In this document: in pieces, positions 10,320 to 24,453 of the stretch
Layout of the letters: each line of letters begins with the position of its first letter
How positions within the stretch are numbered: position 1 is the first letter of the stretch
Sequence record: SRR2962707_624
Length of the DNA: 42,166 bases
Direction: 5' to 3' (one strand)
Translations under genes and position numbers: made by a program
Notes under the pieces: model-generated
Told to the model about the DNA's origin: nothing
Database searches by the model: none
The model's input: the letters and a program-made list of their open reading frames with translations, nothing else

Positions 10320-11048
10320 CTACCAGGGCTCGGCGCTGGTGCGCACATCCGCCTCGAAGGTCCAGGCGGCGCGGGGCTGGCCGTGCATCTGGAGATAGAT
10401 TTCGGCGATGCCGGAAAGGTCGATCAGGCGGCCCTCGCCGGAGCGCTGGGCGGCATATTGGGGGAGCAGCGTGTGGATTTTCTCGCCATCGATGGCGCCG
10501 TCGATCACGACATGACCGACATGGATGCCAAGCGGCCCGAATTCCTTGGCGGCGCTCTGCGCGAAATTGCGCAAGCCCCCCTTGGCAGCGGTGAAGGCGG
10601 CGAAGCCTTCCTTGCCCCGCATGCTGGCGGAAGCGCCTGTGAAGAGGAGCGTGCCCTGCCCCCGCGGGCTCATATGGTCCGATGCCTCGCGCGCGAAGAC
10701 GAAGGCGCCGAAGGTGCAGACGCGCCAGCAGCGCTCGAAGAAGTCGGAGGTCATGCCGGAAATCTTGCCCGGCATGTTGTTGCCCGCATTGTAGACGGCG
10801 AGCGAGACCGGACCCGTCTCTTCCGCGCAGTTCCAGAGATCGATCACCTGGCCCTCGTCCGTGACATCGCAGATGAGCGCCGTGGCGGCGCCGCCTTCCG
10901 CCCGGATCGCCTCGGCAACCGCTTCGAGCTTTTCGAGCGTGCGGCCTGCGACGAAGACATGGAGGCCGTCCTTCGCGATCCGCCGCGCAAGCACCGCGCC
11001 AAGCCCGTTCGCCGGGCCGACGCCCGCCACGATTGCCGTTTCGACCAT
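10320..11048 (-). CDS. Short-chain dehydrogenase/reductase (atypical, FxxxK active site)
   Basis: Motifs GVGPANGLG, YNAG, TGASASMRG, FTAAKGGLR and HVVIDGAIDG. GGAGGG RBS. Confidence 0.9.
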   Translation of the reverse strand: MVETAIVAGVGPANGLGAVLARRIAKDGLHVFVAGRTLEKLEAVAEAIRAEGGAATALICDVTDEGQVIDLWNCAEETGPVSLAVYNAGNNMPGKISGMTSDFFERCWRVCTFGAFVFAREASDHMSPRGQGTLLFTGASASMRGKEGFAAFTAAKGGLRNFAQSAAKEFGPLGIHVGHVVIDGAIDGEKIHTLLPQYAAQRSGEGRLIDLSGIAEIYLQMHGQPRAAWTFEADVRTSAEPW

Positions 11049-11122
11049 GGAATTGCCCTCCGCGTCACATCCAAGCTGAGGGACATATAGTCAGTTCGGA
11101 AAGAGAACCAAGGGAAAATGTG

Positions 11123-11665
11123 TCAGCCGGCGAAGCCGCCCTCATCGAGGAAGCTTTGTTCCTCCGGCGTCGTTTCGCGGCCGAGAACGGCATTGCGATG
11201 GGGGAAGCGGCCGAAACGGCGGATAATGTCCGCGTGGTCGACGGCGAATTCCATCGTCTCCGGATCATCGAGACGCTGCGCGAAATAGACGAGACCGCGC
11301 TCCTGCGCGGCAAGGTCTTCCGAATGCATGTAGGGCATGTAGAACCACTTGCGCGCGGTCACCGGCGTCTCGACATCGTAGCGGCGGCGCACGCTTTCAT
11401 CGGCAAGCGCGAGCGCCTTTGCATCCTGCGCGAAGGCGCGGTGGTCGTTCCGCCAAAGATTGCGGGAGAACTGGTCGAGCACGAGGATGAGCGCGAGCGA
11501 GCCTTGCGCGTCCGCCCCCCATTCGTCGAGCTTGCCCGAAGAGGCTTGCGCATGCGTTTCGCCGAAGCGGCGGCGGATTTCGGCATCGAAAGCGTCGCTC
11601 TTCTTGAACCATTTTTCAGGTCCGGCTGCGAACCAGAAATCGAGCACATCGCGCGGGCGGATCAT
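11123..11665 (-). CDS. DUF924 family protein
   Basis: Motifs VLDFWF, LDQFSRN, YMPYMHSE and RFGRFPHRNAVLGR. GGAG RBS before ATG 11665. Confidence 0.92.
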   Translation of the reverse strand: MIRPRDVLDFWFAAGPEKWFKKSDAFDAEIRRRFGETHAQASSGKLDEWGADAQGSLALILVLDQFSRNLWRNDHRAFAQDAKALALADESVRRRYDVETPVTARKWFYMPYMHSEDLAAQERGLVYFAQRLDDPETMEFAVDHADIIRRFGRFPHRNAVLGRETTPEEQSFLDEGGFAG

Positions 11666-11686
11666 GGTTGCTCCAAAAACAAAATT

Positions 11687-11792
11687 GTCATCCCGGCACC
11701 CTCCTTTGGAAACAAAAAGGGGGGCCGGGATCCAATCCACATTTCAACAATCCGGGATGCCAATGAGTCCCGGGAATAAATCCCGGGATGAC
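11687..11792. repeat. Nested palindromic intergenic repeat (REPIN/MITE-like)
   Basis: Terminal inverted repeats GTCATCCCGG...CCGGGATGAC enclose two internal hairpins (ATCCCGGC..GCCGGGAT and TCCCGGGA..TCCCGGGA). Confidence 0.75.
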
Positions 11793-11831
11793 ACCTCATT
11801 TTTGGCAACGGCAGCGACTGATCGCAACACA

Positions 11832-12030
11832 TCAAACCACAATCACATCCGCAGGCACGGGCTCTTCGTAGAGACGTTCCACAAGATGCGCACGGCGGGA
11901 CGCGGTCGCCTCCTGGTTCACATAGCCCTCGGGCAGCGGATGGTCCGATGAAATATAGATCGCGCCGCCCTCGTCGCGCTGCACGGTGATCTTCGGCGGC
12001 TTCTGCTTCAGCGGCTTGAATGACGCGGGC
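11832..12030 (-). pseudogene. Internally deleted feruloyl-CoA synthase-like acyl-CoA ligase remnant
   Basis: Reads SFKPLKQKPPKITVQRDEGGAIYISSDHPLPE (Fcs-like N-terminus) fused in frame to GYVNQEATASRRAHLVERLYEEPVPADVIVV-stop (Fcs-like C-terminus). No start codon lies between it and the upstream gene. Confidence 0.75.
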
Positions 12031-12090
12031 CCGCGCGTTCCGATGCGCGCGGTGACCCGGGTTTCGATCTTGAATGCGCCGTATCGCCGG

Positions 12091-13656
12091 TCAGTTGACC
12101 ATACGTTCCCGGCCTTCCCAGTAAGGCGCGCGCAACTCGCGGCGGAGAATCTTGCCCGACGGATTGCGCGGCAGCGCCTCAATGAAGTCGACCGATTTCG
12201 GCACCTTGTAGGCGGCGATGCGCGTTTTCGAGAAGGCGATGATCTCGTCGGGCGTCGCGTGTTCGCCGGGCTTGAGGACGACGATGGCCTTCACCGCCTC
12301 GCCCCACTTCTCGTGCGGTACGCCGACGACGGCAGCATCCGCAATCGCCGGATGCCCGAACAGCGCGTTCTCGACTTCTGCCGGATAGATGTTCTCGCCG
12401 CCCGAAACGATCATGTCCTTCACCCGGTCATGGATGAAAAGATAGCCGTCTTTGTCGAAGAAACCGGCATCGCCCGAATAGAACCAGCCGTCGCGAATCG
12501 AATCCGTCGTTGCGTCGGGTCTGTTCCAGTAGCCTTTCATGACCGAACCGCCCTTGATGACGATCTCGCCGACCTCGCCGGTGGATACATCGTCGCCTTT
12601 GTCGTCGACGACGCGGATATCCATATCGGGGTTTGGAATGCCGCAGGAGCGAAGTTTGCCCTTGGCCGGATCATGCGCTTCCGGCGGCAAATGGGTCGCA
12701 CCGCCACTGGTTTCGGTGAGGCCGTAAAGCTGCACGAAGCCGGCACCCTTGAACGTTTCCTGCGCGCGAAGCAGGACGTCTTCAGCTATCGGCGAAGCGC
12801 CGTAGAGAATCTGGCGCAGGCTCGACACATCGGTGGAAGCAAGATTCGGCTGCTGCAGCAGAAAGAGAATGACGGCCGGTACCATGAAGGCCACGGTGAG
12901 CTTCTCGCTCTCGATCAGCTTCAGGATCAACTGCGGGTCGACATCCTTGAGGATCACGTTCCGGCAGCCATGCAGATTGCCGAGGATGCCGATATTGACG
13001 CCTGCGACATGAAAGAGCGGCATGCAGACAAGGACAACATCGTCCAGACCCCAGTTCGCCCAGTCCGTGCCCTGCTTGAAGACCGAGATGTAATTTGCGT
13101 TGGTGAGCTGCACGCCTTTCGGGTGGCCGGTCGTGCCGCTCGTATAGAGCTGGATCACGTCATCGTCGGGCGCGGCGGGCAGCATCGGGTCTTCCGCCTT
13201 CGCCGCGTCGCGCCAATCGTCGAAGGACTGCCAGTCGTTGCGCCCGCCATCGAGCGCTATCACCTTGCGGACCGTGGGGCACTCCGGCAGCACCTTCTCG
13301 ACGAGTTCATAGAACTCGGCGCCGATGAAGAGGATTTCGGTCCTGGAGTCGTTCAGCACATAGGCGACTTCGGGGGCGGCGAGACGCCAGTTGACGCCGA
13401 CAACGACCGCCTTCGCCTTGAAGGCGCCATAGAGCATTTCGAAATAGCGGTCGGAACCCTTGCCCATGAAACCGATGCGCGCATCGGGCTTGCAGCCGTC
13501 GCCGATCAGCGCCTGCGCGACCTGGCTGGCGCGCTTGTCGAGCTCGCCATAGGTCGTCTCCCGGCCTTCGAAAACCTGCGCCACCGCATCCGGCTGAGTC
13601 GCGGCCTGGGCGCGCGTGATGTCGGCCACGCATTTTACTCGTTCGGCGTCGAACAT
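12091..13656 (-). CDS. Long-chain fatty-acid--CoA ligase
   Basis: Motifs YTSGTTGHPKG, MPLFHVAG, YGLTET, SGD, DRVKDMIVSGGENIYPAEVE and PRNPSGK. GGAGG RBS before ATG 13656. Confidence 0.95.
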   Translation of the reverse strand: MFDAERVKCVADITRAQAATQPDAVAQVFEGRETTYGELDKRASQVAQALIGDGCKPDARIGFMGKGSDRYFEMLYGAFKAKAVVVGVNWRLAAPEVAYVLNDSRTEILFIGAEFYELVEKVLPECPTVRKVIALDGGRNDWQSFDDWRDAAKAEDPMLPAAPDDDVIQLYTSGTTGHPKGVQLTNANYISVFKQGTDWANWGLDDVVLVCMPLFHVAGVNIGILGNLHGCRNVILKDVDPQLILKLIESEKLTVAFMVPAVILFLLQQPNLASTDVSSLRQILYGASPIAEDVLLRAQETFKGAGFVQLYGLTETSGGATHLPPEAHDPAKGKLRSCGIPNPDMDIRVVDDKGDDVSTGEVGEIVIKGGSVMKGYWNRPDATTDSIRDGWFYSGDAGFFDKDGYLFIHDRVKDMIVSGGENIYPAEVENALFGHPAIADAAVVGVPHEKWGEAVKAIVVLKPGEHATPDEIIAFSKTRIAAYKVPKSVDFIEALPRNPSGKILRRELRAPYWEGRERMVN

Positions 13657-13904
13657 GACGGTATTCCTCCCCGTGCTGGCATATTGCCGATCTCGCGCGG
13701 GCATCCTCTTGCTCCGGCGCGGGCGGCCTTTTCGGCCCCTCTTGCGCGCCAGTGTAGCCGTCCGCGCGGGCGGGGCAAGCGAAGCCGGAAGCGGACACGG
13801 ACTGTTGAAGAGGCCTCCGGCGGACGCGAGCGGCTGGACGCAGCGTCGGCGCGGGGTAGACTGCCCCCAACCAGAAATCACGTTCAGGGAAGGAACTCAC
13901 GCAT

Positions 13905-14456
13905 ATGGCCCGCATCCCCTATTTCGACCGAGAGAAAGCCACCGGCCGCGCGGCGAAGGTTTACGAGACGCTGCCGAACCTCAACATCTTCCGCATGCTC
14001 GGCCATTCAGGCGACATGATCGAGGGCTTCATCAAGCTCGGCAATGCGATCCTCGTCTACAGCGAGATCGATGCGGTGCTGCGCGAAATCGCCATCGTCC
14101 GTGTCGGCGTGCTGAAAGGCGCTTCCTACGAGGTCTACCAGCATGAGGAAATCTCGCGGAAGCTCGGCATGTCGGAAGAGCTGATCAAGGCAATTCACGA
14201 AGGACCCGACGCAAAGGCTTTTGACGAGTTGCAGCGCATGGTGATGCGCTTCACCGACGATGTGGTGGCCAACACGCGCGCCTCCGATGCGACGTTCAAT
14301 CCGCTCGCCGAGAAGCTCGGCTACAAGCAGCTTCAGGAGCTCGTCATCACCATCGGCTTCTACACAACCGCCTGTTATTTCCTCGAAACCTTCGACGTCG
14401 ACATCGAGGAAGCGGGTCACAAGTCGGGTGTAAACCTGCCCGGCATGCAGGGCTGA
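13905..14456 (+). CDS. Carboxymuconolactone decarboxylase/AhpD-like family protein
   Basis: Motifs LNIFRMLGH, LREIAIVRVG..YEVYQH and ELVITIGFY. AAGGAA RBS. Confidence 0.85.
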   Translation: MARIPYFDREKATGRAAKVYETLPNLNIFRMLGHSGDMIEGFIKLGNAILVYSEIDAVLREIAIVRVGVLKGASYEVYQHEEISRKLGMSEELIKAIHEGPDAKAFDELQRMVMRFTDDVVANTRASDATFNPLAEKLGYKQLQELVITIGFYTTACYFLETFDVDIEEAGHKSGVNLPGMQG

Positions 14457-14458
14457 CC

Positions 14459-15025
14459 ATGGCGCGCCTTCCTTATCCCGATCCGGCGGACCTGCCGGAT
14501 GCGAGCCGCGAACTGCTCGAAGGCCTGCCGCAGCTCAACATCTTCCGCATGCTGGCGGGCAGCGGCCCTTCCTTCGTACCCTTCATGGCGCTCATCAACG
14601 CCTATCTGAACGAAGGGCTGCTCGACACGGAACTGCGTGAACTCGTGATCCTCCGCGTCGGCCATCTCTGCGGCTCGACCTATGAGTTGCACCAGCACCG
14701 CCGCGTGTCGCGAATGATCGGCATGAGCGCGGAACGGATCGAGGCGGCCGAAGGCGCGCTCCCCTCGCCTCTCCTCAGTGAGGCGGAGAACGCGGTTCTC
14801 GCCTTTACCGACGACCAGGTGGCGAACGTGAAGGCGGACGGCGCGCTGTTCGCCGCCGCGCGCAAGCACCTCGGCGATGCCGGCATGCAGGAACTCGTCA
14901 TCATCGTCGGCATCTATCTTCTCGTCTGCCGCTATCTGGAGACGCTGGAGATAGATATCGAGGAGACGGACATTGCGACGAGCGGCCTCGACGAAATCAG
15001 GCGGAGCATGAAGAGGCATGACTGA
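14459..15025 (+). CDS. Carboxymuconolactone decarboxylase/AhpD-like family protein (tandem paralogue)
   Basis: Motifs LNIFRMLA, LRELVILRVG..YELHQH and ELVIIVGIY. Collinear similarity to the preceding gene. Confidence 0.85.
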   Translation: MARLPYPDPADLPDASRELLEGLPQLNIFRMLAGSGPSFVPFMALINAYLNEGLLDTELRELVILRVGHLCGSTYELHQHRRVSRMIGMSAERIEAAEGALPSPLLSEAENAVLAFTDDQVANVKADGALFAAARKHLGDAGMQELVIIVGIYLLVCRYLETLEIDIEETDIATSGLDEIRRSMKRHD

Positions 15026-15857
15026 GAAAGAGCCCTATGTGAAGCCGCTGCCGCCGGAATCGGAAGGCACGGCGCCGGGACGCGGGCGGCTCAAGGGCCG
15101 TCGCATCCTTGTCGTCGGCGGCGGCCAGCGCGTCCTCGACGCGGCGAGCGATCCGGTCGGCAATGGCCGCGCCATGTCGCTGCTCTTTGCGCGCGAAGGC
15201 GCGGAGGTGGCCGTCGCCGACATGAACCTGAAATCGGCGGAAGAAACAGTCGCGCAGATCGTGAAGGTGGGTGGCAAGGCCCATGCCATCGAGACAGACA
15301 TCTCGAAGCCGGACGACATCGCCGCGATGATCGGAGAAGCTGAGACGGCGCTCGGCACGCTGGACGGGCTCGTCCTCAATGTCGGCATCGGCGTCGGCGG
15401 GCTCGGCCTCCAGGGCGCGGAGCCGGACGACTGGGACAAGGTGCTGGCCGTGAACCTGCGCGGGCCGATGCTCTGCTGCAAGGCGGCGCTGCCGAGGCTG
15501 GCCGACGGCTCGCCTATCGTTTTCATTTCGTCGATTGCGGGGCTCATCGCGGGCTCGCGCCTGCCGGCCTATGACGCATCCAAGGCCGCGCTTGGCGGGC
15601 TGATGCGGCATGTCGCGCTTGAAGGATCGCGGCGCGGCATCCGCGCGAACATCGTCGCGCCGGGCCTCGTCGACACGCCGCTCGGCCGCGTGGCGACGCA
15701 AGGGCGGCCCTCGCGCGGGCGCACGCCCGTTCCCTTCGGGCGGCAGGCGACGGGATGGGAGATCGCCTATGCGGCGCTCTTTCTCGTCTCCGACGAAAGC
15801 GTTTACGTCACCGCGCAGACGCTCGCCGTCGACAGCGGCATGACGGGCATTTCCTGA
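15018..15857 (+). CDS. SDR-family oxidoreductase
   Basis: Motifs GNGRA, NVGI, ISS, YDASK, IRANIVAPGLVDT and LAVDSG. Overlaps the upstream stop. Confidence 0.92.
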   Translation: MTEKEPYVKPLPPESEGTAPGRGRLKGRRILVVGGGQRVLDAASDPVGNGRAMSLLFAREGAEVAVADMNLKSAEETVAQIVKVGGKAHAIETDISKPDDIAAMIGEAETALGTLDGLVLNVGIGVGGLGLQGAEPDDWDKVLAVNLRGPMLCCKAALPRLADGSPIVFISSIAGLIAGSRLPAYDASKAALGGLMRHVALEGSRRGIRANIVAPGLVDTPLGRVATQGRPSRGRTPVPFGRQATGWEIAYAALFLVSDESVYVTAQTLAVDSGMTGIS

Positions 15858-15860
15858 GCT

Positions 15861-17000
15861 TCAGGTCGCGGGACCATAACCGAAGTAATGCGCGATGGGC
15901 GCCGTGCGGTCGCGGATCGCATGGAGCTCGTCGGGCAAGAAATGCGGCTCGTAATAGCCCGGTGGATGAAGGCGCGAGCGCGCCCGCTCGACGATCTCGT
16001 CCGATACGTCCAGACGGCAATGATCGAGGATGCGGCGCATCTTTTCCGCAGGCCGCTCGCAGACGTCTTCGTAGCGGACGAACAAGACGGCGTCCGATAG
16101 TGCGGGGTTCATGTCGCAACGCTCGGCGACATAGCCATAAACCTCCGCCCATTGCAGCGCCCAGCCCTCCGCCTCGCGGCCTTCCGACCAGAGTTCGGCG
16201 ACCGTTGCTGCCACAGACTCGCTGCCGCAATTGATCGGCACGCGGTCGAGACCGAATTCGAAATGGCCTGTATGCGCGAGATGCGCGCGGGCTTCGGGAT
16301 GCTCCACCTCGCCCTGCACGAACAGCCGGTGTTGCTTCATCAGCGAGGCGACGTGCCAGACCGGTCCGCGAATGGGCACGACGAAGCGGGCATCGGGAAA
16401 GAGCTTCAGGAGATACTCGAGCCGCGTCACATTGTAGTTCGCCTTGGCGAGATAGCGCATGCCGTCGCGCAGGAAGAGAAGTTTGCGGATATGCGCGCTG
16501 AGGAAGGCCTCGAACTCGGGATGCGATGCTTCCTGCGTAAAGGTCTCGTCCCAGAGGCGCTTGTGGAGATGAGGAAAGAAATTCATCCAGACCGGCTCCT
16601 CGAAAGCCTCGGGACTTTCGGACGTCACATAGATCCCGTCCTTGTGCGCGCGCTCGGCGGGCGCTTCCTGCTTGCCCGGTATGTAGTCGACGAGCTTGTT
16701 CCACAGGATCGGCGTGAACACCGGCGGGAAATCGCGGTAGCGCTGCGTGACGACCTGCGGATGATCCGCGAGAAGTTCGAGAAGAACGGTGCTGCCGCTG
16801 CGCGCAAGACCGCTGATCCAGACCGGCGACGTGACCGGAATATCGTCGAAGCGATCCTCGAACAGGCGTGTCTCCATTTTTGCGAGCGACTGCATCAGCT
16901 TCGGCCGCTCGTAGAGGATACGGCCGAGCCGGTCCATCCAGGGCGTGACGGCGAATTTATCCGCAGGCGAGGAGGCGGGAGAGGAGGCCGCGTTGCTCAT
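15861..17000 (-). CDS. PAPS-dependent sulfotransferase family protein (cytoplasmic)
   Basis: 5'-PSB loop ISGLARSGSTVLLELLADHP, YLAKAN, LFPDARFVVPIRGP..VASL (3'-PB) and FVRYEDVC. No signal peptide. ATGA overlap with the upstream gene. Confidence 0.9.
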   Translation of the reverse strand: MSNAASSPASSPADKFAVTPWMDRLGRILYERPKLMQSLAKMETRLFEDRFDDIPVTSPVWISGLARSGSTVLLELLADHPQVVTQRYRDFPPVFTPILWNKLVDYIPGKQEAPAERAHKDGIYVTSESPEAFEEPVWMNFFPHLHKRLWDETFTQEASHPEFEAFLSAHIRKLLFLRDGMRYLAKANYNVTRLEYLLKLFPDARFVVPIRGPVWHVASLMKQHRLFVQGEVEHPEARAHLAHTGHFEFGLDRVPINCGSESVAATVAELWSEGREAEGWALQWAEVYGYVAERCDMNPALSDAVLFVRYEDVCERPAEKMRRILDHCRLDVSDEIVERARSRLHPPGYYEPHFLPDELHAIRDRTAPIAHYFGYGPAT

Positions 17001-17722
17001 GCGATCTTTCCGACTTTCTTGATGATGAGGGAGAAGGCGAGAAAGAGCGCGAAGAAGAGCGCTTCCCAACCGCGCATCCAGGAGGGCCCGAAAGGCACGA
17101 CCTCGAACGCCGGGAGACGGACTTCAACACGCTCCACCGGCACACCATCGGGCAGATACCCTGCCGGATTGGCGATGAACCAGTTCCACCAGCGGTATTT
17201 CTCGATGACGGGCACGGGCGCCTTCATCGGCACATCGGAAACGACAACGCCTTCCGGCTCGCGCACCACGACGCGGCGATCCGCAGCGCCATTTCCGATG
17301 ATCGCAGCGTGAAATCCCTCAGGCGCGGCTTGCGCGGGCGCATGGGCATTTTCCGGTGGAAAGCGATAGCCGTAATCGTTCGAGAGCCAGACGATGAGCG
17401 CGATGATGGGAAGCGAGGCGGCAAGCGCCGGCGGCAGGGCAAGCCAGAGGCGCGATCCCGCCGCGCGAAACATGCGGGCGATCATCGGCCACGCCTCGTC
17501 CATCTCGCCGTCGAATGCGTTGAGTTCGCGCCGCGCGGCGAGAGCCTCGGCTTCCGATGCGGCAAGCCTCTTCTGCGGTGAGAGCAGCTTGTAGAGCCAC
17601 ATCGAAAGCCCGGCGGCGGCAAGCGCCCAGAGAAGAAGCCGCGCCGCAGGCGGAAGCGGCTGCAGCAACGTTTCCACCGCACGGAACAGCGGCGCCGGGA
17701 GATCGAAGAGGCCCATCGTCAT
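16997..17722 (-). CDS. Membrane protein, DUF106/EMC3/TMCO1 (Oxa1 superfamily)-like topology
   Basis: Amphipathic N-terminal helix, TM1 (LLLWALAAAGLSMWLY), charged helical segment, TM2 (LPPALAASLPIIALIVWL), large loop, TM3 ending GWEALFFALFLAFSLIIKKVGKIA. The CDS is well supported; the family call is by architecture only. Confidence 0.6.
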   Translation of the reverse strand: MTMGLFDLPAPLFRAVETLLQPLPPAARLLLWALAAAGLSMWLYKLLSPQKRLAASEAEALAARRELNAFDGEMDEAWPMIARMFRAAGSRLWLALPPALAASLPIIALIVWLSNDYGYRFPPENAHAPAQAAPEGFHAAIIGNGAADRRVVVREPEGVVVSDVPMKAPVPVIEKYRWWNWFIANPAGYLPDGVPVERVEVRLPAFEVVPFGPSWMRGWEALFFALFLAFSLIIKKVGKIA

Positions 17723-17731
17723 GACGCTCTC

Positions 17732-17989
17732 CTATCGCGCGGGCGAGGAATTCGCGTCTTCATGCGAGGCATGCCGTGCATTCGCAGCCTGCTTGCGGCG
17801 ACGCATCATGCGGCGGACCGGCCAGCCGACGATGAAAACGAGCGCGGCGCCAACTGCCATGACGACGCCGATGAGCGCGCCTACAACGCTGAGCCCGGCG
17901 CCCGGACCGACATAAGCCATGGCGGGACTGGCAAGGGCGAACACCGCTGCGAAGCTCGCGAGGAACAAGGTCTTGTGTTTCGCAATCAT
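17732..17989 (-). CDS. Small membrane protein with signal peptide and YxGPG motif (85 aa)
   Basis: Sec signal ending PAMA, then YVGPGAG, one TM helix and a basic tail RRMMRRRK. AGGAG RBS and ATGA overlap with the upstream gene. Confidence 0.85.
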   Translation of the reverse strand: MIAKHKTLFLASFAAVFALASPAMAYVGPGAGLSVVGALIGVVMAVGAALVFIVGWPVRRMMRRRKQAANARHASHEDANSSPAR

Positions 17990-19401
17990 CTTCTTCGTAC
18001 TCCTTCTTGCATGTCGCCCGAGGCGTATTCCGGTTTCGGCTCGAACGAGGGATCGAGTTCAGCGGGCACGTAGCGGCGGCCCCATGCGACGATCGGAATT
18101 TTCTTGTCGCCTTCGCCCCCGCGCACCGGGTTCACATATTCCCAGGCGATCTCGCCCTCGGGCGTGACTTCGAGAAGACGGCCTGCCTGAGATTCCGTTA
18201 TCAGCGTGTTGCCGTTCGACAGGCGCATCGCCTCCGAGCGCAGAACGCTCTTCAACGGATCTTCCTTCGTCCCTTCGTAGGCCCACACGATTTCCATCGT
18301 CTCGGGATTGAACTCGATGACCCGCGATCCGCCGGGACCGTTGTAGTTTCCGTTGTTGTCGAACAGGAGAACATTGCCGTTCGCGAGCGGTTCCGCATCG
18401 TGCTGCCCGACCCAGGGACCGAGCGTGCCCCAGACGATCTCTTCCGTTTTCGGGTCGAACACGGCAACGAGCTTCAGATTGCGAATGCTGAGCATGAGAT
18501 CGCCCTCACGCGCCATGGACATTGCCTGTCCCGCTTCCGCGCCGACTTGCTTCACCGAATTCGTGTGAAGCGGGTCCTGCGCGGTGCGCCGCGAAAGGCC
18601 GCCGAGAAGCCACTTGAAGGGAGAGTTCGCGACGGCCTCAAGAAGCGAGACGCGCTTCTCGACTTCACCATCGGGCGACAGGATGACGAGGAAGTCCTCG
18701 ATGAGCGGCGTTTCGAGCCCTTGTCCCTCGACCGGCTCGTGGCGCATCTCGTGCGTGAGCGCGTAGATCGTGCCGTCCGCGCCGACCTCGACATCGTGAT
18801 GCGCGCGTTCGTCGAGATAGCTCCAGATGACGTTTGAATTCTTGTCGAGCTTGACGAGCCCAAGGCCCCAGGGCGTGTCGCCGGAGCCCTCATAGACGGC
18901 GAGCAGATCGCCATTCGGATACATGTAGCTTTTGCGGATATAGATATGAGGGCCGAGCGTGCCTGCCGCTTCAGTCTCCTCTGTCCATATCTTTTCCGGC
19001 GGCGTGAACCAGCGGTGAACTTCGCGGCCTTTCATGTCGACGAGAAAGGCGCTCGGCTCGTGCGACGAGGTGTAAAGCGTGTAGCCTTCAAGCGCGGTGT
19101 CGGGGTCGTGCGCGACGACACCCTTGTCTTCACCGCGCGCGTCGTACCAGAGATCTGTCTGGTACCGGTCGCCGAATTGCGTCGCCTGCGCATATAGCGC
19201 ACCCGCGGCATCATGCGCATTCGTCAGCAGCTTGTAAGGCGGCACGCGCGCAAGCACGACCCATGCGCCGATGAGGAAGGCGATCAGAGCTATGGAAAAC
19301 ACGAAGAAGGCAGGAGCGACCCACCCGCCATTCGGGTCTTCGCTCGTTTCATCGCGGGACTGGCTTTGAAAGGAATCCGACTCGGCGTGCCGATAGGTCA
19401 T
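17986..19401 (-). CDS. Arylsulfotransferase (ASST)-family beta-propeller, N-terminal membrane anchor
   Basis: One N-terminal TM. His motifs AHHDV, LHTNSV and QHDA, plus NGNVLLFDN and RLSNGNTLITES propeller repeats. Confidence 0.88.
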   Translation of the reverse strand: MTYRHAESDSFQSQSRDETSEDPNGGWVAPAFFVFSIALIAFLIGAWVVLARVPPYKLLTNAHDAAGALYAQATQFGDRYQTDLWYDARGEDKGVVAHDPDTALEGYTLYTSSHEPSAFLVDMKGREVHRWFTPPEKIWTEETEAAGTLGPHIYIRKSYMYPNGDLLAVYEGSGDTPWGLGLVKLDKNSNVIWSYLDERAHHDVEVGADGTIYALTHEMRHEPVEGQGLETPLIEDFLVILSPDGEVEKRVSLLEAVANSPFKWLLGGLSRRTAQDPLHTNSVKQVGAEAGQAMSMAREGDLMLSIRNLKLVAVFDPKTEEIVWGTLGPWVGQHDAEPLANGNVLLFDNNGNYNGPGGSRVIEFNPETMEIVWAYEGTKEDPLKSVLRSEAMRLSNGNTLITESQAGRLLEVTPEGEIAWEYVNPVRGGEGDKKIPIVAWGRRYVPAELDPSFEPKPEYASGDMQEGVRRR

Positions 19402-19619
19402 TGTTTTTCTGCCTACTGCGATCCGCCCAAGGGGATCGAAGCGCCCGGGCATGGCGAGAAAAAGACCGAAGCGGGGCATTAACGGGGCGGGCCTGCATTT
19501 TCAGGACTGTGCTCTTCGCATCTGCACGCAAGCACATGCACGCCAAATCCGCCGTTAAGAACTTGATACAAACGCCGCCGCATTCGACACTCGGAAAACC
19601 AAACACCTGGGGGGAAATC

Positions 19620-20600
19620 ATGGGTCTCGGTCTCAGCCGCTTTCAATACACGAAGGGCCTGCACGATCTCGGCAATGGCGGCTACGCCTGGCTGCAGCCG
19701 GATGGCGGCTGGGGCTGGTCGAATGCGGGTCTCGTCGTCGATCAAGGCGAGAGCTTCCTGATCGACACGCTGTTCGACGTACCGCTGACGAAGGAAATGC
19801 TCGACGCGATGCGCAAGGCCGAGCCGAAAGCGGCGGCGAAGATCGGCACCCTCGTCAACACGCATCACAATGGCGACCATTGCAACGGCAACGAATGCTG
19901 CCATGGCGCCGAAATCATCGCGCACAAGCTCGCAGTCGAAGGTATGCGTCACGAACCGCCGGCGCTGCTCGCGGGCTTCCTCGACATGGCGCCGGAGCTC
20001 GGCGACCTCGGAAGATATGTGACGCAATGTTTTGGGCCCTTCGACTTCAAGGGCGTGACGCAGACGCTGCCGACCACGACTTTCGAGACTGAACTGACAC
20101 GGCATGTCGGGTCCAAGGAAATCCGCATCATGCATGTCGGTCCCGCGCATACGCCGGGCGATGCGCTCGTGTATGTCCCCGCCGACAAGACCGTCTTCAC
20201 CGGCGACATTCTTTTCATCGAAGGCCATCCCATCATGTGGGAGGGACCGGTTTCAAACTGGATCGATGCCTGCGACCGGATCATCGCGATGGACGTGGAA
20301 ACAGTGGTGCCGGGCCACGGGCCGATTACGGGCAAGAACGGTGTGAAGGCGGTGCGCGACTATCTCGTCTATATCCGCGATGAGGCGAGGAAGCGCCACG
20401 ATGCCGGCCTCACCGCTTTCGACGCCGCCCTCGATATCGACATGACGGATTACGACAGCTGGGGCGACGGCGAGCGGATCGTCGTCAATGTCTCGACGCT
20501 CTACAAGGAGTTTTCGGGCGACGACACGCCGAACGATGTGCCGACGATCTTCGGTCAGATGGCGGAACTCACAAAACGGCAGGGCCGCCTGAGAAGCTGA
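19620..20600 (+). CDS. MBL-fold metallo-hydrolase (cyclase-like)
   Basis: Motifs GWSNAG, IDT, NTHHNGDHCNGN, AHTPGD, FTGD and VPGHGP. Confidence 0.92.
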   Translation: MGLGLSRFQYTKGLHDLGNGGYAWLQPDGGWGWSNAGLVVDQGESFLIDTLFDVPLTKEMLDAMRKAEPKAAAKIGTLVNTHHNGDHCNGNECCHGAEIIAHKLAVEGMRHEPPALLAGFLDMAPELGDLGRYVTQCFGPFDFKGVTQTLPTTTFETELTRHVGSKEIRIMHVGPAHTPGDALVYVPADKTVFTGDILFIEGHPIMWEGPVSNWIDACDRIIAMDVETVVPGHGPITGKNGVKAVRDYLVYIRDEARKRHDAGLTAFDAALDIDMTDYDSWGDGERIVVNVSTLYKEFSGDDTPNDVPTIFGQMAELTKRQGRLRS

Positions 20601-20713
20601 CGCCGCGTCTTCCCCGCAATTGGAAGGCGTCACGCTTCCGTGATCGCGGGAACGGTGGACAGCCAACCACCGACACCCGATGATCCCCGCCAATGGACCA
20701 AGGGGAGGCCGTC

Positions 20714-21499
20714 ATGATCACGCTCTATGAACACCCGCTTTCGCCCTATGCGCAGAAGGTGAAGATCAGCGCCCGCGAAAAGGGCATTGAACTCGACCTG
20801 AAGACACCGGACGGCGTGGGGGTCGGAAATGCGCGAGGAGAGTTTGTCGACGCCAATCCGCGCGCCGAAGTGCCGGCGCTGATCGACGGAAACACGCGCA
20901 TCTTCGATTCGACCATCATCCTCGAATATCTGGAAGACAAGTTCCCCACGCCAGCCATGCTGCCCTCCACGCCCGCGGAACGCGCCCGCGTCCGCATAAT
21001 CGAGGAAGTGTGCGACACGCATTATGAAGCGATCAACTGGGGCCTCGGCGAACTCGCCTGGTTCGGTCGGGCGAAAGGCGCGAAGGCGGACGACATCCGG
21101 GCACGCGCTGCGACGCAAACGGCGAAAATCCAGAACTGGCTGACGAAGCAGCTTGGGGCCGCCGACTGGTTCAACGGCAAGACACTCGGCTGGGGCGACC
21201 TTTCGGTCGTTCCTTACGTGAACGGCTCCGTGGGCCTCGGCAACGCACCGGAAGAAGGCTCGGCGCTCGGCAAGTGGCTCGCGCGCGCGAACGCCCGCCC
21301 GAGCGTTGCGCAGACAGCAAAGGAATCCGTGGACAGCATGGCCGGCGTGAAGATGCTTGGCGAACTCCTGGAACAGGGACTCTTCACGCGGGAGTACCGC
21401 GACCATCGCCTTGAATGGATGATGAAGACAGGCGGACCCGAGATCGTTCTCGACGGGTTGAAGAAGAACAACATCCGCTACAGCTACGAATTCGAATAG
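20714..21499 (+). CDS. Glutathione S-transferase family protein
   Basis: Motifs LYEHPLSPYAQKV, NPRAEVPAL and DSTIILEYLEDKFP. GGAGG RBS before ATG 20714. Confidence 0.93.
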   Translation: MITLYEHPLSPYAQKVKISAREKGIELDLKTPDGVGVGNARGEFVDANPRAEVPALIDGNTRIFDSTIILEYLEDKFPTPAMLPSTPAERARVRIIEEVCDTHYEAINWGLGELAWFGRAKGAKADDIRARAATQTAKIQNWLTKQLGAADWFNGKTLGWGDLSVVPYVNGSVGLGNAPEEGSALGKWLARANARPSVAQTAKESVDSMAGVKMLGELLEQGLFTREYRDHRLEWMMKTGGPEIVLDGLKKNNIRYSYEFE

Positions 21500-21508
21500 G
21501 AAATGCTC

Positions 21509-22441
21509 ATGTCTGCGAATGCTCAATCGATCATCCTCCACCAATACGACATCTCGCCTTTCTCGGAGAAGGTGCGCGTGGTGCTCGGCATCAAGGGGCT
21601 CGACTGGTTCGCCTGCGATGAGCCCGTCATCATGCCGAAGCCGGAACTTGTGGCGCTGACCGGCGGCTATCGCAAGATTCCGGTGATGCAGATCGGCGCC
21701 GACATTTATTGCGACACACAGATCATCATCCGGGAACTGGAGAAGCGTTTTCCGGCGCCCTCCATTTTTACCGGTGGCGACAACGGGCTCGGCTGGGGCG
21801 TTGGCATGTGGACCGATCGCACCTTCTTCAACGCGGCGGTCGCGGTTATCTTCGGCGGCGCGCCGGATGTGATGGGAGATGATTTCAAGGAAGACCGCTC
21901 GAAACTGATGGGCCGGTCCTTCGACACAGACGCCATGAAGGCGGCGGCGCCCCTGATGGCCGAACAGCTTCGCGCCAATTTCGGCTGGCTTGAGGAGCAA
22001 CTTGACGACGGCCGCGCCTTCCTGATGGGGGCGGAGCCCGGCATCGCCGACGCCAATGCTTATTACAATATCGCCTTTATTCGCTGGATTTATCCCGACG
22101 GCGCAAGGAGCGCCGACGCCATGCCGAAACTCGCCGCATGGGAAAAGCGCGTTGCCGAAATCGGCCATGGAAACCGGCAGGAGATTTCCCGGGACGGTGC
22201 ACTCGACATTGCGAAGGCCGCAACGAGCACCGAAGAAACGAAAGCCGATCCCGGCGAGCCGAACGGATTGAAACCCGGCGACACCGTGACCGTCATGGCG
22301 GACGATTATGGGCGCGATCCGATTTCGGGCGAACTCGTCTCCTCATCGGCGCAGCACATCGCGCTGAAGCGGAACGATCCGCGCGTGGGTGACGTGGTGA
22401 TGCACTTTCCGAGGGCGGGCTTCTTCGTGATGAAGTCGTGA
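21509..22441 (+). CDS. Glutathione S-transferase family protein with C-terminal extension (alternative start 21503)
   Basis: Motifs SPFSEKVR, GYRKIPVMQIGADIYCDT, DYGRDP and VMHFPRAGF. Confidence 0.92.
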   Translation: MSANAQSIILHQYDISPFSEKVRVVLGIKGLDWFACDEPVIMPKPELVALTGGYRKIPVMQIGADIYCDTQIIIRELEKRFPAPSIFTGGDNGLGWGVGMWTDRTFFNAAVAVIFGGAPDVMGDDFKEDRSKLMGRSFDTDAMKAAAPLMAEQLRANFGWLEEQLDDGRAFLMGAEPGIADANAYYNIAFIRWIYPDGARSADAMPKLAAWEKRVAEIGHGNRQEISRDGALDIAKAATSTEETKADPGEPNGLKPGDTVTVMADDYGRDPISGELVSSSAQHIALKRNDPRVGDVVMHFPRAGFFVMKS

Positions 22442-22454
22442 TTGTCGCGCACGC

Positions 22455-23522
22455 ATGACGCCCGAGCTCGGCACCATTGAAGGTTTTTACGGACAGCCAT
22501 GGAGTTGGGAGGCGCGCGCCGCCCATGCAAGCGCGCTCGCGCCGCATGGCTATCGCTTCTATCTCTACGCGCCGAAGGCCGACGCCTTCCTGCGGCGGCG
22601 CTGGGCCGAGCCTCACCCGGACGGCGAGATCGAACGTCTCGCGAGCCTTGCCGCGCATTGCCGGGCGGAAGGTGTGCGCTTCGGCGTTGGCCTCAGCCCT
22701 TACGAACTCTATCTCGGTTTCGACGAGGCGGCGCGCGAGGCGCTCGCCCTAAAGCTCCATGAACTCGATGACATCGGCATCGACGATCTCGCCATCCTGT
22801 TCGACGACATGCGCGGCGACCTGCCCGGCCTTGCGGAGAAACAGATCGAGATTGTGGACTTCGCCGCTGAACGCTCGAAAGCCGGACGGCTGATCGTCTG
22901 CCCGAGCTACTACACCGACGATCCGATCCTCGACCGCGTCTTCGGCGAGCGGCCGGCGGGGTATCTTGAAACGCTGGGGGCGGCGCTCGATCCCGCCATC
23001 GAGGTTTTCTGGACGGGCCCGCGCGTCTGCTCGAAGGAAATCGGCGTCGAACATCTCGCCCGCACTGGCGAAACGCTGGGACGCAAACCCTTTATCTGGG
23101 ACAACTACCCGGTGAATGACGGGCAGCGCATGTCGCCCTTCCTGCATCTGCGCGGCTTCACCGGTCGCGACGCGGAAATCGGCGACAGCATTGCGGCGCA
23201 TGGTGTGAACCCGGCGTCGCAACCGTGCCTGAGCCGCATTCCGATGCTGACGCTCGAAACGGTTTATGCTGATGCCGGAACTTATGACGCAGACGCTGCC
23301 TTCCGCGCAGCGGCGGAAGCAGTCGCGGGACCGGAGCTTGCCCGCCTGATCGAGGCCGACCTCGACCTCCTGCAGGACAAGGGGCTCGACTGCCTGAGCG
23401 AAAAGGAAACGGCGGCGCTGCGAAACCGCTACACCGCCGTCGACAATCCTTGCGCCCGCGAAATCGTCCAGTGGCTTGACGGCCACTGGCGCATCACGAA
23501 CGAAACGGTGCTGACGCAGTAA
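22455..23522 (+). CDS. GH84 beta-N-acetylglucosaminidase (O-GlcNAcase/hyaluronidase-like) catalytic domain protein
   Basis: Motifs GTIEGFYGQPWS, YLYAPKAD, LFDDM (catalytic Asp-Asp), FWTGP and WDNYPVND. Confidence 0.92.
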   Translation: MTPELGTIEGFYGQPWSWEARAAHASALAPHGYRFYLYAPKADAFLRRRWAEPHPDGEIERLASLAAHCRAEGVRFGVGLSPYELYLGFDEAAREALALKLHELDDIGIDDLAILFDDMRGDLPGLAEKQIEIVDFAAERSKAGRLIVCPSYYTDDPILDRVFGERPAGYLETLGAALDPAIEVFWTGPRVCSKEIGVEHLARTGETLGRKPFIWDNYPVNDGQRMSPFLHLRGFTGRDAEIGDSIAAHGVNPASQPCLSRIPMLTLETVYADAGTYDADAAFRAAAEAVAGPELARLIEADLDLLQDKGLDCLSEKETAALRNRYTAVDNPCAREIVQWLDGHWRITNETVLTQ

Positions 23523-23528
23523 CGTGCG

Positions 23529-24347
23529 TCAGCGGGCCGTCATGCCGCCATCAATGACAAGCTCCGTGCCCGTCATGTAGCGAGACTCATCGGAGGCCAG
23601 AAACACGATGCCCGCCGCAATATCCGCGGGAAGACCCGCATAGCCGAGCGGGGCGCCGGTCGCGGCGATCGCATTCGGATCGATCGTGTTGGCGCCGTCT
23701 GCGAGTTTCAGCACGCTGGACGCGAGCGCACCGACACCGCCTCCACTCTGCGGGATCTTCTGCCAGATCGCCGTGTCGATGATGCCGGGATGAACCGAGT
23801 TCACACGAACATTCATCTCCGCCTGCGCACATTCAAGCGCGACAGCCTTGGTGAAGAGGCGGACCGCACCCTTGGTCGCGCAGTACGCGGCAAGCCCCGG
23901 CGCGCCCTGCAGACCCGCGACGGACGAGATATTGATCACCGATCCGCCGCCCGAGGCTGCGATGAGCGGGATACCATGTTTCACGCCGAAGAAAACGCCA
24001 TCGACGTTGATCGCCTGTTGACGGGTCCAGTCCTCGTAGGACATCTCGAAGATCGAAGCGCCGATGCCGATACCCGCATTGTTGACGAGGATGTGGAGAC
24101 CCGCGAACTCGTCCTTCACGGCCGCGACGATCTCACGCCACCGCTCCTCGCTCGTCACATCCTGCTTGTGCGAACTGGCTGTGCCGCCCGCCTTGCGGAT
24201 AATCTCAACCGTTTCCTTGAGCCCTGCCTCATCCACATCCGTGACGACGACTTTCGCCCCCTCGGCTGCGAGGGCGATAGCCGCGCCGCGCCCGATGCCG
24301 CTTGCCGCGCCCGTAATCAGCGCCACCTTGCCGCTTACCCGTCCCAT
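23529..24347 (-). CDS. SDR-family oxidoreductase (hydroxysteroid/cyclic alcohol dehydrogenase-like)
   Basis: Motifs TGAASGIG, NNAGI, NISS, YCATKGAVR, RVNSVHPG and IDGG. GGAG RBS before ATG 24347. Confidence 0.94.
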   Translation of the reverse strand: MGRVSGKVALITGAASGIGRGAAIALAAEGAKVVVTDVDEAGLKETVEIIRKAGGTASSHKQDVTSEERWREIVAAVKDEFAGLHILVNNAGIGIGASIFEMSYEDWTRQQAINVDGVFFGVKHGIPLIAASGGGSVINISSVAGLQGAPGLAAYCATKGAVRLFTKAVALECAQAEMNVRVNSVHPGIIDTAIWQKIPQSGGGVGALASSVLKLADGANTIDPNAIAATGAPLGYAGLPADIAAGIVFLASDESRYMTGTELVIDGGMTAR

Positions 24348-24453
24348 GCTTTTCTCCCGGAATCTTCTTATGGTTTGCAGTCCAAGTCTTAGGGTATGTG
24401 CCCTAGGCCCGCAACGTCCCAGCCCATCCCGGAGCGCAGGCTGAAATGCGGGC

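Follow-up and report, generated by a model that had tools for sequence, protein, structure and literature searches.

A Four-Gene Proteobacterial Cassette as a Probable Trans-Membrane Sulfation Module

Gene Arrangement

The window analyzed here is the whole stretch of 42,166 nucleotides from sequence record SRR2962707_624. Its minus strand carries, at 15861..19401, the four open reading frames of a cassette, coding for an ASST-like protein of 471 aa (17986-19401), a peptide of 85 aa, pep (17732-17989), a membrane protein of 241 aa, mem (16997-17722), and a sulfotransferase of 379 aa, ST (15861-17000). ATGA overlaps at 17986-17989 and 16997-17000 were both read in the sequence, and a 9-nt gap lies between the stop codon of pep (TAG, 17732-17734) and the ATG of mem (17722). 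The four genes are translationally coupled, and to judge from the ATGA overlaps their products would be made in roughly equal amounts. The co-oriented operon described in an earlier sequence-only reading, with its overlaps and gap, was borne out in every point; the start of the ASST-like gene at 19401 is also correct, since the orthologue in L003 allows only that start after an in-frame stop. Among the four, pep has the strongest Shine-Dalgarno sequence (AGGAG). GC3 is 0.74-0.76 across the four frames, similar to the neighboring genes.

The Two Enzymes

In the ASST-like protein (17986..19401, minus strand) a short N-terminal tail is followed by one transmembrane (TM) helix (residues ~28-50) and a beta-propeller predicted to be periplasmic. 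Family searches agreed with the earlier naming of both enzymes: the ASST-like protein matched the Pfam families PF14269 (E 5.7e-31) and PF05935 (E 2.8e-8), and ST matched PF13469 (E 4.6e-21) and PF00685 (E 2.9e-7). With the AF2 model of the ASST-like protein (pLDDT 90), the best Foldseek matches were to Cpz4 (9kf4/9kf6; E ~8e-16, 20% identity, ~400 columns), followed by the E. coli ASST (3elq, 4p04; E ~1e-10). Residues H201, H202, H279, N281, R307 and H334 were invariant in an alignment of 78 sequences, and this H...H-x-N...R...H series has the order of His252, His356, Asn358, Arg374 and the sulfo-His436 of EcAST, the enzyme of E. coli CFT073 (3ELQ). The candidate sulfo-histidine is His334 (codon 18400..18402, minus strand; 78/78), which stands in an invariant Q-H-D motif and is placed by the profile match opposite WQHD of 9kf6; going by motif order only, it would be the counterpart of EcAST His436. 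Both proteins are extracytoplasmic beta-propellers, but their identity is only 12-14%. Unlike EcAST, which has a cleaved signal peptide and is accompanied by DsbL/DsbI, the ASST-like protein is closer to PF14269 than to PF05935, carries a TM anchor, is encoded in an operon without Dsb partner genes and is linked to a PAPS-type ST. Bacterial ASTs are described as accepting tyrosine and Tyr-containing peptides and as transferring sulfate to acceptors instead of hydrolyzing the ester (PMC13426309); the reactions are presented as ping-pong exchanges between phenols (PMC12297285, PMC13426309).

ST (15861..17000, minus strand) is a PAPS-type sulfotransferase predicted to be cytoplasmic, and as judged from its sequence the PAPS-binding motifs are retained. 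The 5'-phosphosulfate-binding loop G64-T71 (G-L-A-R-S-G-S-T; codons at 16788..16811, minus strand) aligns with G-V-P-R-S-G-T-T of TPST1, and G64, R67, G69 and T71 were invariant in 12 sequences, as were R211 and S219, which we take to be the 3'-phosphate-binding motif. A PDB profile search with ST returned protein-tyrosine sulfotransferases as all of its top 7 matches (E 3.8e-12 to 1e-9). A signal sequence is absent from ST and a single N-terminal TM helix is present in the ASST-like protein, and the two are predicted to work in opposite compartments, as the first reading supposed. In some genomes a PF01663 protein replaces the ASST-like one (see below); since these substitutes carry lipoprotein signals with lipoboxes, the outer enzyme would be extracytoplasmic in both variants.

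The Membrane Components

The peptide pep (17732..17989, minus strand) consists of a leader-like hydrophobic segment ending in P-A-x-A, the sequence Y-V-G-P-G-A-G, a 24-residue TM helix, W-P-V-R-R with an Arg/Lys cluster, and a variable tail; no Pfam family matched it above threshold. Its only tyrosine, Tyr26 (codon 17912..17914, minus strand), is the first residue (+1) beyond the A-x-A site of predicted cleavage. Conservation of this residue, on which the first reading depended, is strict: Tyr26 was kept in 49/49 aligned peptides (alignment A5), in which A23, G28, P29, G30, P57 and R59 were invariant as well, and in all 24 distinct peptides read from loci with a search pattern that permitted any residue at this position, and it was never replaced by Phe or Trp. 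As Tyr26 follows a conserved signal-peptidase-type A-x-A site, it should face the periplasm; for an ST in the cytoplasm, the only time to load it would thus be before pep enters the membrane. Of the mature peptide, only ~7 residues would protrude from the membrane. With its A-x-A leader, Y-x-G-P-G, TM helix and basic tail, pep looks like a procoat protein. A like plan is seen in the classical clients of YidC (M13 procoat and Pf3 coat), where a leader and a short translocated segment precede a TM helix and a basic tail in the cytoplasm; unlike these phage coats, pep belongs to a cellular operon and has the invariant Y-x-G-P-G.

In the protein mem (16997..17722, minus strand) a cytoplasmic helical hairpin connects TM1 to TM2, and a periplasmic beta domain (~118-215) lies between TM2 and TM3. 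Its AF2 model (pLDDT 96.6) gave 7tut_8 as top match in VIA-align (rmsd 3.8, 134 aligned) with a Z of 10.8, a value short of the level up to which the aligner itself urges caution with helical proteins; the whole model was likewise covered by Get1 (Z 7.5) and YidC (Z 7.3). The mem of the window matched no Pfam family above threshold, and the top family among its relatives was PF01956 (6/122, best E 1.9e-5). At E<=1e-3 the mem family contains 1350 representative clusters. From its predicted fold, mem would be a divergent, EMC3/TMCO1-like protein of the Oxa1 superfamily, an assignment which is not conclusive; an insertase-like protein fits the earlier proposal of a 3-TM protein that helps to move the carrier across. 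Like members of that superfamily (YidC, archaeal Ylp1/DUF106, Get1, EMC3, TMCO1), mem has a core of three TM segments, the first two of them joined by a cytoplasmic helical hairpin, and the fusions described below are consistent with their N-out/C-in topology. Unlike them, it has a beta domain of ~100 residues inserted between TM2 and TM3, is dedicated to a sulfotransferase operon, and has an insertase activity that is putative; a short form in L022 is without the beta domain. The mem family is bacterial, whereas the DUF106 group is given as archaeal and eukaryotic in PMC5868721. The same source characterizes clients of the superfamily as small membrane proteins in which TM helices are few and the translocated regions small, a description which pep matches.

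Occurrence in Other Genomes

All of the 24 mem-bearing genomes surveyed, from alpha- and gammaproteobacteria, carry pep and ST, and the expectation that the genes co-occur elsewhere was confirmed. The ASST-like gene is present in 20 of them, and a PF01663 lipoprotein takes its place in 4. The order of pep, mem, ST and the ASST-like gene is the same in L001-L005, L007-L009 and L020-L021, and also in 6 of 7 further alphaproteobacterial genomes; in the seventh (G621), where the locus borders on a contig end, only pep, mem and ST are present. One genome has the set divided between an ASST-mem locus and a pep-ST locus. The recurrence of the cassette exceeds chance, the genes being together in every related locus examined. 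The flanks of 14 compared loci contained no further recurring gene family, and the proximity to polysaccharide genes that the earlier reading had proposed to look for was not found at any locus.

Natural fusions of three kinds tie the parts of the cassette together. ST is joined to the cytoplasmic C-terminus of mem in some genomes (a mem-ST fusion occurs in P0155), and in three more a minimal 3-TM module is N-terminal to ST, next to pep and with a distant ASST-like gene. PF01663 is fused to mem in P0077, and in P0040 pep precedes a PF01663 domain within one protein. The latter domain follows the basic cluster and would be cytoplasmic by the positive-inside rule, which clashes with the lipoprotein forms.

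Comparison with Known Systems

The cassette resembles the DltX/DltB system of D-alanylation, the parallel drawn in the sequence-only reading, in which a very small membrane peptide with a conserved Tyr on the outer side adjoins donor machinery in the cytoplasm and a transferase outside it. The cassette differs in having no MBOAT protein, in that sulfate and not an acyl group would be moved, and in the place of the Tyr, which in pep is the N-terminal residue after maturation. Typical TPST sites are acidic, unlike the surroundings of Tyr26 (A-Y-V-G-P-G). The animal enzymes TPST1/2 are the best solved relatives of ST. These and RaxST of Xanthomonas are PAPS-dependent enzymes of the same Pfam family as ST which act on tyrosines of small peptides. 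According to the abstracts, RaxST is a bacterial cytoplasmic tyrosine sulfotransferase whose substrate is the small precursor peptide RaxX, and RaxX is exported by type I secretion with sulfate as the final product, unlike the proposed carrier pep.

The two-step sulfation of caprazamycin employs the PAPS-dependent ST Cpz8, the type III PKS Cpz6 and the ASST-type enzyme Cpz4 (Tang et al. 2013, as cited in PMC4257720 and PMC12297285). It resembles the cassette in pairing a PAPS-dependent ST with a PAPS-independent ASST-type enzyme, and it includes the best structural match of the ASST-like protein. In the cassette, however, a membrane anchor holds the ASST-like enzyme, whose predicted site is the periplasm, two obligatory membrane proteins (pep and mem) are added, a PKS or other carrier-making gene is missing, and the setting is proteobacterial, outside any antibiotic cluster. 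The sequence-only reading knew of no description of the system. The principle of PAPS-ST, aryl sulfate and ASST is already known from Cpz8 to Cpz4, as reported in PMC4257720; the literature searched yielded no two-step sulfation that spans the membrane by means of an insertase-like protein and a Tyr-bearing peptide.

Proposed Mechanism and Alternatives

The four proteins very probably form one coupled trans-membrane sulfation module. In our analysis the best explanation would be a self-contained two-step sulfation of the Cpz8-to-Cpz4 kind which spans the inner membrane and is split between cytoplasm and periplasm. As to the carrier, the single most likely reading, which we put forward tentatively, is that it is the tyrosine of pep. 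ST docked on mem would sulfate Tyr26 of nascent pep in the cytoplasm; mem, as a dedicated insertase, would insert the hairpin and carry the short sulfo-Tyr loop across, in analogy to YidC and small proteins with short acidic translocated segments. Leader peptidase would then bare a sulfotyrosine, an aryl sulfate, at the new N-terminus, and the propeller would pass the sulfuryl group via its catalytic histidine to a periplasmic or envelope acceptor. This is supported by the resemblance of pep to Oxa1 clients, by the protein-tyrosine sulfotransferases as relatives of ST, by the RaxST/RaxX precedent and by Cpz4, the closest structure, which uses a phenolic sulfate from a PAPS-dependent ST. Several points weigh against it: a carrier that is sulfated and then inserted is single-use and costly, the similarity of ST to TPSTs is mostly within PAPS-binding segments, and the chemistry of PF01663, of the alkaline-phosphatase superfamily, on sulfotyrosine is not obvious. 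Conservation of pep well beyond Tyr (G-P-G, S34, W56-P57-x-R59) would equally suit a purely structural subunit. A multi-turnover version is possible, in which the flexible Y-x-G-P-G-x-G end would act as a swinging arm and dip into the groove of mem for reloading.

The cost of one peptide per sulfate would be spared by a reusable catalytic carrier. ST could sulfate a housekeeping phenol or a membrane lipid (e.g., a quinol or other amphiphile) at the cytoplasmic face, and mem and pep could be an obligate heterodimer which exports or scrambles the aryl sulfate for the periplasmic ASST-like or PF01663 enzyme, with the Tyr structural or gating at the periplasmic mouth. The conserved residues of mem gather at the periplasmic interface (W179, N185-P-x-G-Y189, P213, W215, W219) and could hold the Y-x-G-P-G end of pep. 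YidC is described as insertase and lipid scramblase (PMC11997395), the eukaryotic Oxa1-type insertase TMCO1 as having an obligate small partner, OPTI (10.1101/2023.11.28.569136), and the only characterized PAPS-ST/ASST pair, by the account in PMC4257720, employs a small phenolic carrier; moreover, ST adjoins the ASST-like gene in L045, L050 and L056, where no pep was detected. We nevertheless consider a small carrier somewhat unlikely: no carrier-making gene (PKS or other) recurred across the 14 compared loci, an aromatic residue with no more than an interfacial role would not usually be kept as strictly as this Tyr, which is never exchanged for Phe or Trp, and the nearest solved relatives of ST modify peptide tyrosines. 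It is improbable that sulfated pep is itself an end product or switch, in the manner of RaxX, from which the periplasmic enzyme removes or edits the mark in signalling or regulation instead of bulk envelope sulfation. The RaxST precedent, the TPST-like ST and the stoichiometric amounts suggested by translational coupling would agree with this, and the interchange of two unrelated periplasmic enzymes is easier if both merely remove or hydrolyze a sulfate ester; but ASST-type enzymes transfer, the exposed part of pep is very short, and the cassette contains no receptor or regulator gene.

Quite improbable, too, is a reverse, scavenging direction, in which the periplasmic enzyme would take sulfuryl groups from environmental aryl sulfates and pass them inward, and ST would run backwards (aryl sulfate + PAP to PAPS), saving ATP. 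PAPS-dependent aryl sulfotransferases are reversible, ASST reactions are exchanges, and no PAPS-synthesis genes were found near the cassette in any locus. A membrane crossing would still be needed, however, this time opposite to the direction of insertion; a peptide once cleaved and inserted cannot go back to the cytoplasm, and no sulfatase or transporter gene is linked to the cassette. ASST-like enzymes also work alone, as in 16 of 31 alphaproteobacterial genomes with ASST-like matches the other three genes were absent within ~1.5 kb. That the two enzymes merely have an operon, and perhaps a membrane scaffold, in common and act on unrelated substrates is nevertheless very unlikely, given the complete co-occurrence in 24 genomes, the gene order kept across two classes and the fusions.

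The relay of sulfate through Tyr came through all three computational tests of the sequence-only reading (co-occurrence, conservation of Tyr, opposite compartments), and the natural fusions, the TPST-like ST and the Cpz4-like ASST lend it further support, although the periplasmic position of Tyr26 confines loading to the time before insertion. That interpretation is partly supported, and carriers other than the peptide are possible. The cassette may show how bacteria pass sulfate across a membrane.

Arrangement of the Operon and Its Surroundings

The four genes of the cassette follow one another in the same orientation on the minus strand of the window, in the order ASST-like gene (17986–19401), pep, encoding an 85-aa peptide (17732–17989), mem, encoding a 241-aa three-TM protein (16997–17722), and ST, encoding a PAPS-type sulfotransferase (15861–17000). 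As described in the sequence-only reading, neighbouring genes overlap twice by ATGA, and 9 nt separate pep from mem. An ATG at 19479, which would open a longer ORF, was ruled out as the start of the ASST-like gene; the orthologue at the homologous locus L003 lacks an equivalent of it and has only a start equivalent to 19401, which was therefore adopted. Pfam families were assigned to the ASST-like protein (PF14269 and PF05935) and to ST (PF13469); for pep and mem of the window no significant Pfam match was obtained, and NCBIfam brought nothing further.

According to a Pfam scan of the window, the cassette is flanked by unrelated metabolic genes and thus appears to be a self-contained unit. A short-chain dehydrogenase gene (15018–15857) is convergent with the operon, and upstream a metallo-beta-lactamase-fold gene (19401–20600) is divergent on the plus strand; its listed TTG start falls on the start-codon region of the ASST-like gene, and since its Pfam match starts at residue 103, translation probably begins considerably further downstream. 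A location near polysaccharide loci, as considered in the sequence-only reading, was not found: neither polysaccharide nor PAPS-synthesis genes adjoin the operon. A promoter and terminator scan of 15600–19900 gave nothing exceeding shuffled expectation.

Some other genes of the window may be mentioned. At 5438–7378 (minus strand), some 8.5 kb away from the cassette, a sulfate permease of the SulP family is encoded which includes a STAS domain. No recurrence of it was seen in the compared loci, but that comparison took from the window only the ORFs of 9000–26000, a range outside which the permease gene lies. DsbB, COQ7 and Coq4-family genes are clustered at 32949–34075 (plus strand) and 31072–31866 (minus strand). 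They are of passing interest on two counts: the ASST of E. coli depends on a Dsb pair of its own, and quinols might act as phenolic carriers. Nothing ties this cluster to the cassette. A stand-alone HNH endonuclease ORF of 186 aa (34081–34641, minus strand) is located amid housekeeping genes.

Distribution of the Cassette

A search of the genome collection with mem yielded 13 loci, from Parvibaculum, Rhodobiaceae, Methyloligella, Rhodospirillaceae, Woeseiaceae, Wenzhouxiangellaceae, Dokdonella and other gammaproteobacteria; P. lavamentivorans and P. indicum are among the named sources of homologues. The distribution is sporadic: of 401 Alphaproteobacteria sampled, 9 carry mem (seven of them new), as do 4 of 401 genomes sampled across the phylum (three of them new). 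Together with the window, the 13 loci and the three plus seven new genomes formed a set of 24 mem-bearing genomes. In this set pep adjoins mem in 23 cases and ST shares the mem locus likewise in 23 (ST of locus L011 is on the same contig, just beyond the stored range), and an ASST-like gene is found within or near the mem locus in 19. In genome G621 the locus is at a contig edge and ASST-like matches are on other contigs; loci L010–L013 contain, between pep and mem, a gene for a PF01663 protein of 645–680 aa with a lipoprotein signal, and their ST is divergent. The sole exception is the genome of locus L006, with ASST-like gene and mem at one locus and pep and ST at another. The co-occurrence of the genes, on which the sequence-only reading had staked its proposal, thus holds across genomes, as all 24 retain pep and ST (at separate loci in the genome of L006). 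An all-against-all ORF comparison of 14 loci revealed no further recurrent gene family. The composition of the cassette and the genetic coupling of its members are considered firm.

ASST-like genes outnumber the cassette. Matches at E ≤ 1e-20 were obtained in 31 of the 401 Alphaproteobacteria; nine of these 31 carry mem, three possess a distant ASST-like gene together with pep and an ST with an N-terminal three-TM extension, in three ST adjoins the ASST-like gene but pep was not detected, and in 16 none of the partners is within about 1.5 kb of the ASST-like gene.

Several loci showed variations. Two tandem ASST-like paralogues, with 38% and 33% identity to the window protein, precede pep, mem and ST at L021:8921–11645 (minus strand). 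In genome G773 (L029/L030; G773:C12:37526–38241) an in-frame TGA splits mem into matches at profile positions 1–146 and 153–252. Here mem may be a pseudogene, or the split may stem from a frameshift or from an error in sequencing; the other three genes of the cassette appear intact. Extra PF01663-family paralogues are found near the cassette at L011:1976–3595 and L006:8–1507, in the latter locus mem adjoins an ASST-like gene, and a PF01663-like ORF is located some 3 kb upstream.

The Two Putative Sulfate-Transferring Enzymes

The ST protein scored 76.5 bits against PF13469 (Sulfotransfer_3; cut-off 27). No variation was seen among 12 sequences at G64, R67, G69, T71, R211 and S219; the 5'-phosphosulfate loop is retained, and R211 and S219 are taken by us to be the 3'-phosphate motif. 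In a profile search of PDB sequences, the top seven matches were TPST1, TPST2 or a TPST fragment (E 3.8e-12 to 1e-9), followed by the entries 2zq5 and 2z6v, designated "putative uncharacterized protein" (E 6.5e-6 and 3.2e-5). Judging by this search, the sulfotransferases of known structure that ST resembles most are TPSTs, the aligned stretches being mainly PAPS-binding.

The ASST-like protein reached 108.5 bits for PF14269 (cut-off 27) and 33.6 bits for PF05935 (cut-off 24.2). Its AF2 model (pLDDT 90) is a beta-propeller behind one TM helix, for which Foldseek ranked Cpz4, the ASST-type enzyme of caprazamycin biosynthesis, first (9kf4/9kf6, E about 8e-16) and EcASST entries next (about 1e-10). 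Invariant in 78 of 78 sequences are H201, H202, H279, N281, R307 and H334. The catalytic residues of EcAST are given as His252, His356, Asn358, Arg374 and His436 (PMC13426309), and H201/H202, H279-x-N281, R307 and H334 follow their order, with H334 as the only one aligned residue by residue to a solved ASST. A phmmer search with the protein alone against PDB sequences gave no match, and a sub-profile of its N-terminal half (alignment A6) produced only chance-level matches and no ASST alignment of H201/H202 or H279. Families and folds of the enzymes, as well as the invariant residues, are regarded as firm, and so is their predicted separation: in agreement with the sequence-only reading, ST and the ASST-like protein are predicted to be on opposite sides of the membrane.

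The Three-TM Protein Resembles the Oxa1 Superfamily

At E ≤ 1e-3 the mem family comprises 1350 representative clusters, and at E ≤ 1e-30 it comprises 328. The AF2 model, built with 122 sequences, had a pLDDT of 96.6 and contains TM1 (25–47), a hairpin of helices 50–69 and 74–94, the latter continuing as TM2 (to 117), a beta domain at 129–201 (about residues 118–215) between TM2 and TM3, and TM3 (219–238). The model has the three-TM core of the Oxa1 superfamily, in which TM1 and TM2 are joined by a helical hairpin on the cytoplasmic side. With Foldseek, nothing in the PDB matched the model at E ≤ 0.001; the Oxa1-type structural match was obtained in an exhaustive VIA-align search only, with 7tut_8 at the top (Z 10.8, rmsd 3.8, 134 residues; next row Z 7.9) and Get1 (Z 7.5) and YidC (Z 7.3) as the other matches covering the whole model. 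Structure 7TUT is a multipass translocon which includes TMCO1 (10.1101/2023.11.28.569136), a protein of 188 aa (PMC5868721); from its length (177 modelled residues) and the composition of the complex, chain 8 is probably TMCO1. The most frequent Pfam family among the 122 relatives of mem was PF01956 (EMC3_TMCO1), present in 6 (best E 1.9e-5); mem of the window itself matches none. The Atlas provided a weak lead (0.77) from mem to a cluster with PF01956 in 17% of its members.

A short mem of 145 aa at L022:7884–8318 (minus strand) lacks the periplasmic beta domain, and therefore the three-TM core appears to be the conserved unit. The adjacent ST at this locus is C-terminally shortened, and an ASST-like gene is about 3 kb away.

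These findings lead us to regard mem as a bacterial representative, though a divergent one, of the Oxa1 superfamily, or at the least as a protein that mimics its structure closely. Proteins of this superfamily are described as having an N-out/C-in three-TM core with a cytosolic coiled coil, and as handling small membrane proteins whose translocated regions are small; the EMC3/TMCO1-like branch is described as archaeal and eukaryotic (PMC5868721). The sequence-only reading had drawn a parallel to the tyrosine-peptide relays of the DltX type. These rely on an MBOAT membrane acyltransferase. No such partner is found in the cassette, where mem matches no MBOAT family and adopts an Oxa1-like fold in its model.

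Gene fusions of mem, C-terminally to ST and N-terminally to PF01663, are compatible with an N-out/C-in topology. In database protein P0155, mem is followed by a linker and ST, and the ST genes of loci L048, L051 and L055 open with a minimal three-TM module; both types are predicted to place ST at the cytoplasmic C-terminus of mem, and fusions of this kind recur in independent genomes. P0077 consists of PF01663 followed by mem, and P0040 of pep followed by PF01663, each being known from one database sequence. In P0040 (726 aa) a pep-like N-terminus with leader, A-M-A-Y-V-G-P-G-A-G, TM helix and basic cluster is fused directly to the PF01663 domain, which by the positive-inside rule would be cytoplasmic; this contrasts with the orthologous stand-alone PF01663 proteins of L010–L013, which are lipoproteins.

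The Peptide and Its Single Tyrosine

All members of the pep family have a basic N-terminus, a hydrophobic leader ending in P-x(0–2)-A-x-A, the motif Y-[VIL]-G-P-G, a TM helix of about 24 residues, [WY]-P-x-[RK], an Arg/Lys cluster and a variable tail. Residues A23, Y26, G28, P29, G30, P57 and R59 are invariant in 49 aligned sequences. Conservation of Tyr26, the sole Tyr of pep and the sulfate-carrying residue of the sequence-only reading, was upheld, since it is invariant in 49 of 49 aligned sequences, and the residue preceding [VILM]-G-P-G is Tyr in 24 of 24 distinct locus-derived peptides, which were retrieved with a pattern that left this position free for any residue.

The end of the leader, with Ala at -3 and -1 and an upstream Pro, has the pattern that signal peptidase I requires. 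The predicted cleavage would leave Tyr as the first residue of the mature peptide, exposed on the periplasmic face; with an uncleaved leader, Tyr would be within a very short periplasmic loop. In a membrane-inserted pep it is thus predicted to be beyond the reach of the cytoplasmic enzyme, whether the leader is cleaved or not. An inverted hairpin with the Tyr loop in the cytoplasm, which would reconcile P0040 with the lipoprotein forms of PF01663, was judged unlikely in view of the strongly basic residues on either side and the conservation of the A-x-A site. A complex prediction for mem and pep (alignments A3 and A5) gave a score of 0.00 and a mark of 0.34 with the alignments unused, and is neutral on binding.

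Possible Routes of Sulfate

The chemical logic of the sequence-only reading has a direct precedent, since Cpz4 receives sulfate from a phenolic sulfate which is made by the PAPS-dependent Cpz8 (PMC4257720); the principle of two-step sulfation is already known. The cassette likewise pairs a PAPS-dependent ST with an ASST-type enzyme. In the Cpz system a type III PKS makes the phenolic carrier, whereas the cassette is without a dedicated carrier-making enzyme; no PKS was detected in the Pfam scan of the window and no further family in the flanks of the 14 loci. No description of a trans-membrane arrangement with an Oxa1-like component and a Tyr peptide was found in the open-access literature searched.

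As to the flow of sulfate through the cassette, which we infer in its entirety, a route with Tyr as carrier and sulfation prior to insertion is tentatively favoured, at somewhat less than an even chance. ST, residing on mem, would sulfate Tyr26 of newly made pep; mem would insert the peptide hairpin; leader peptidase would then expose the sulfotyrosine, and the ASST-like propeller would collect the sulfate. Such a route could account for a trivial peptide having its own insertase-like protein, for this protein being tied to ST, for the Tyr of pep never being Phe, and for the outer enzyme being of an aryl-sulfate-dependent type. Its weak points are that each carrier would be used only once, that PF01663 substitutes for the ASST-like gene in some lineages, that the topology of P0040 clashes with the lipoprotein forms, and that pairs of ST and ASST-like genes occur without pep. 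A small or lipid aryl carrier, with mem and pep acting as its exporter, is the main rival; it retains the logic of the Cpz system and is rated as somewhat less likely. Other explanations are that pep itself is the sulfated end product, that sulfate flows in reverse for scavenging, or that there is no relay at all.

The Tyr-carrier route can be put in more specific terms, and then becomes rather doubtful: a ribosomally made mini-protein would serve as sulfate shuttle, modified at its invariant Tyr by a TPST-like enzyme on a dedicated insertase of the Oxa1/EMC3/TMCO1 type. This insertase would bring the sulfotyrosine through the inner membrane, and the N-terminal aryl sulfate, once freed by leader peptidase, would feed a periplasmic Cpz4-like enzyme. 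If true, the shuttle would be the first protein-borne sulfate donor and a physiological donor for an ASST family, and mem would be the first bacterial case of a three-TM protein of the Oxa1 type that is dedicated to a defined client. The supply of extracytoplasmic sulfation is a puzzle, because PAPS is confined to the cytoplasm, and the cassette is a compact, genetically defined candidate answer. With mem, a sizeable family of three-TM proteins resembling EMC3 and TMCO1 comes to light in bacteria, for which the neighbouring gene supplies a candidate dedicated client.
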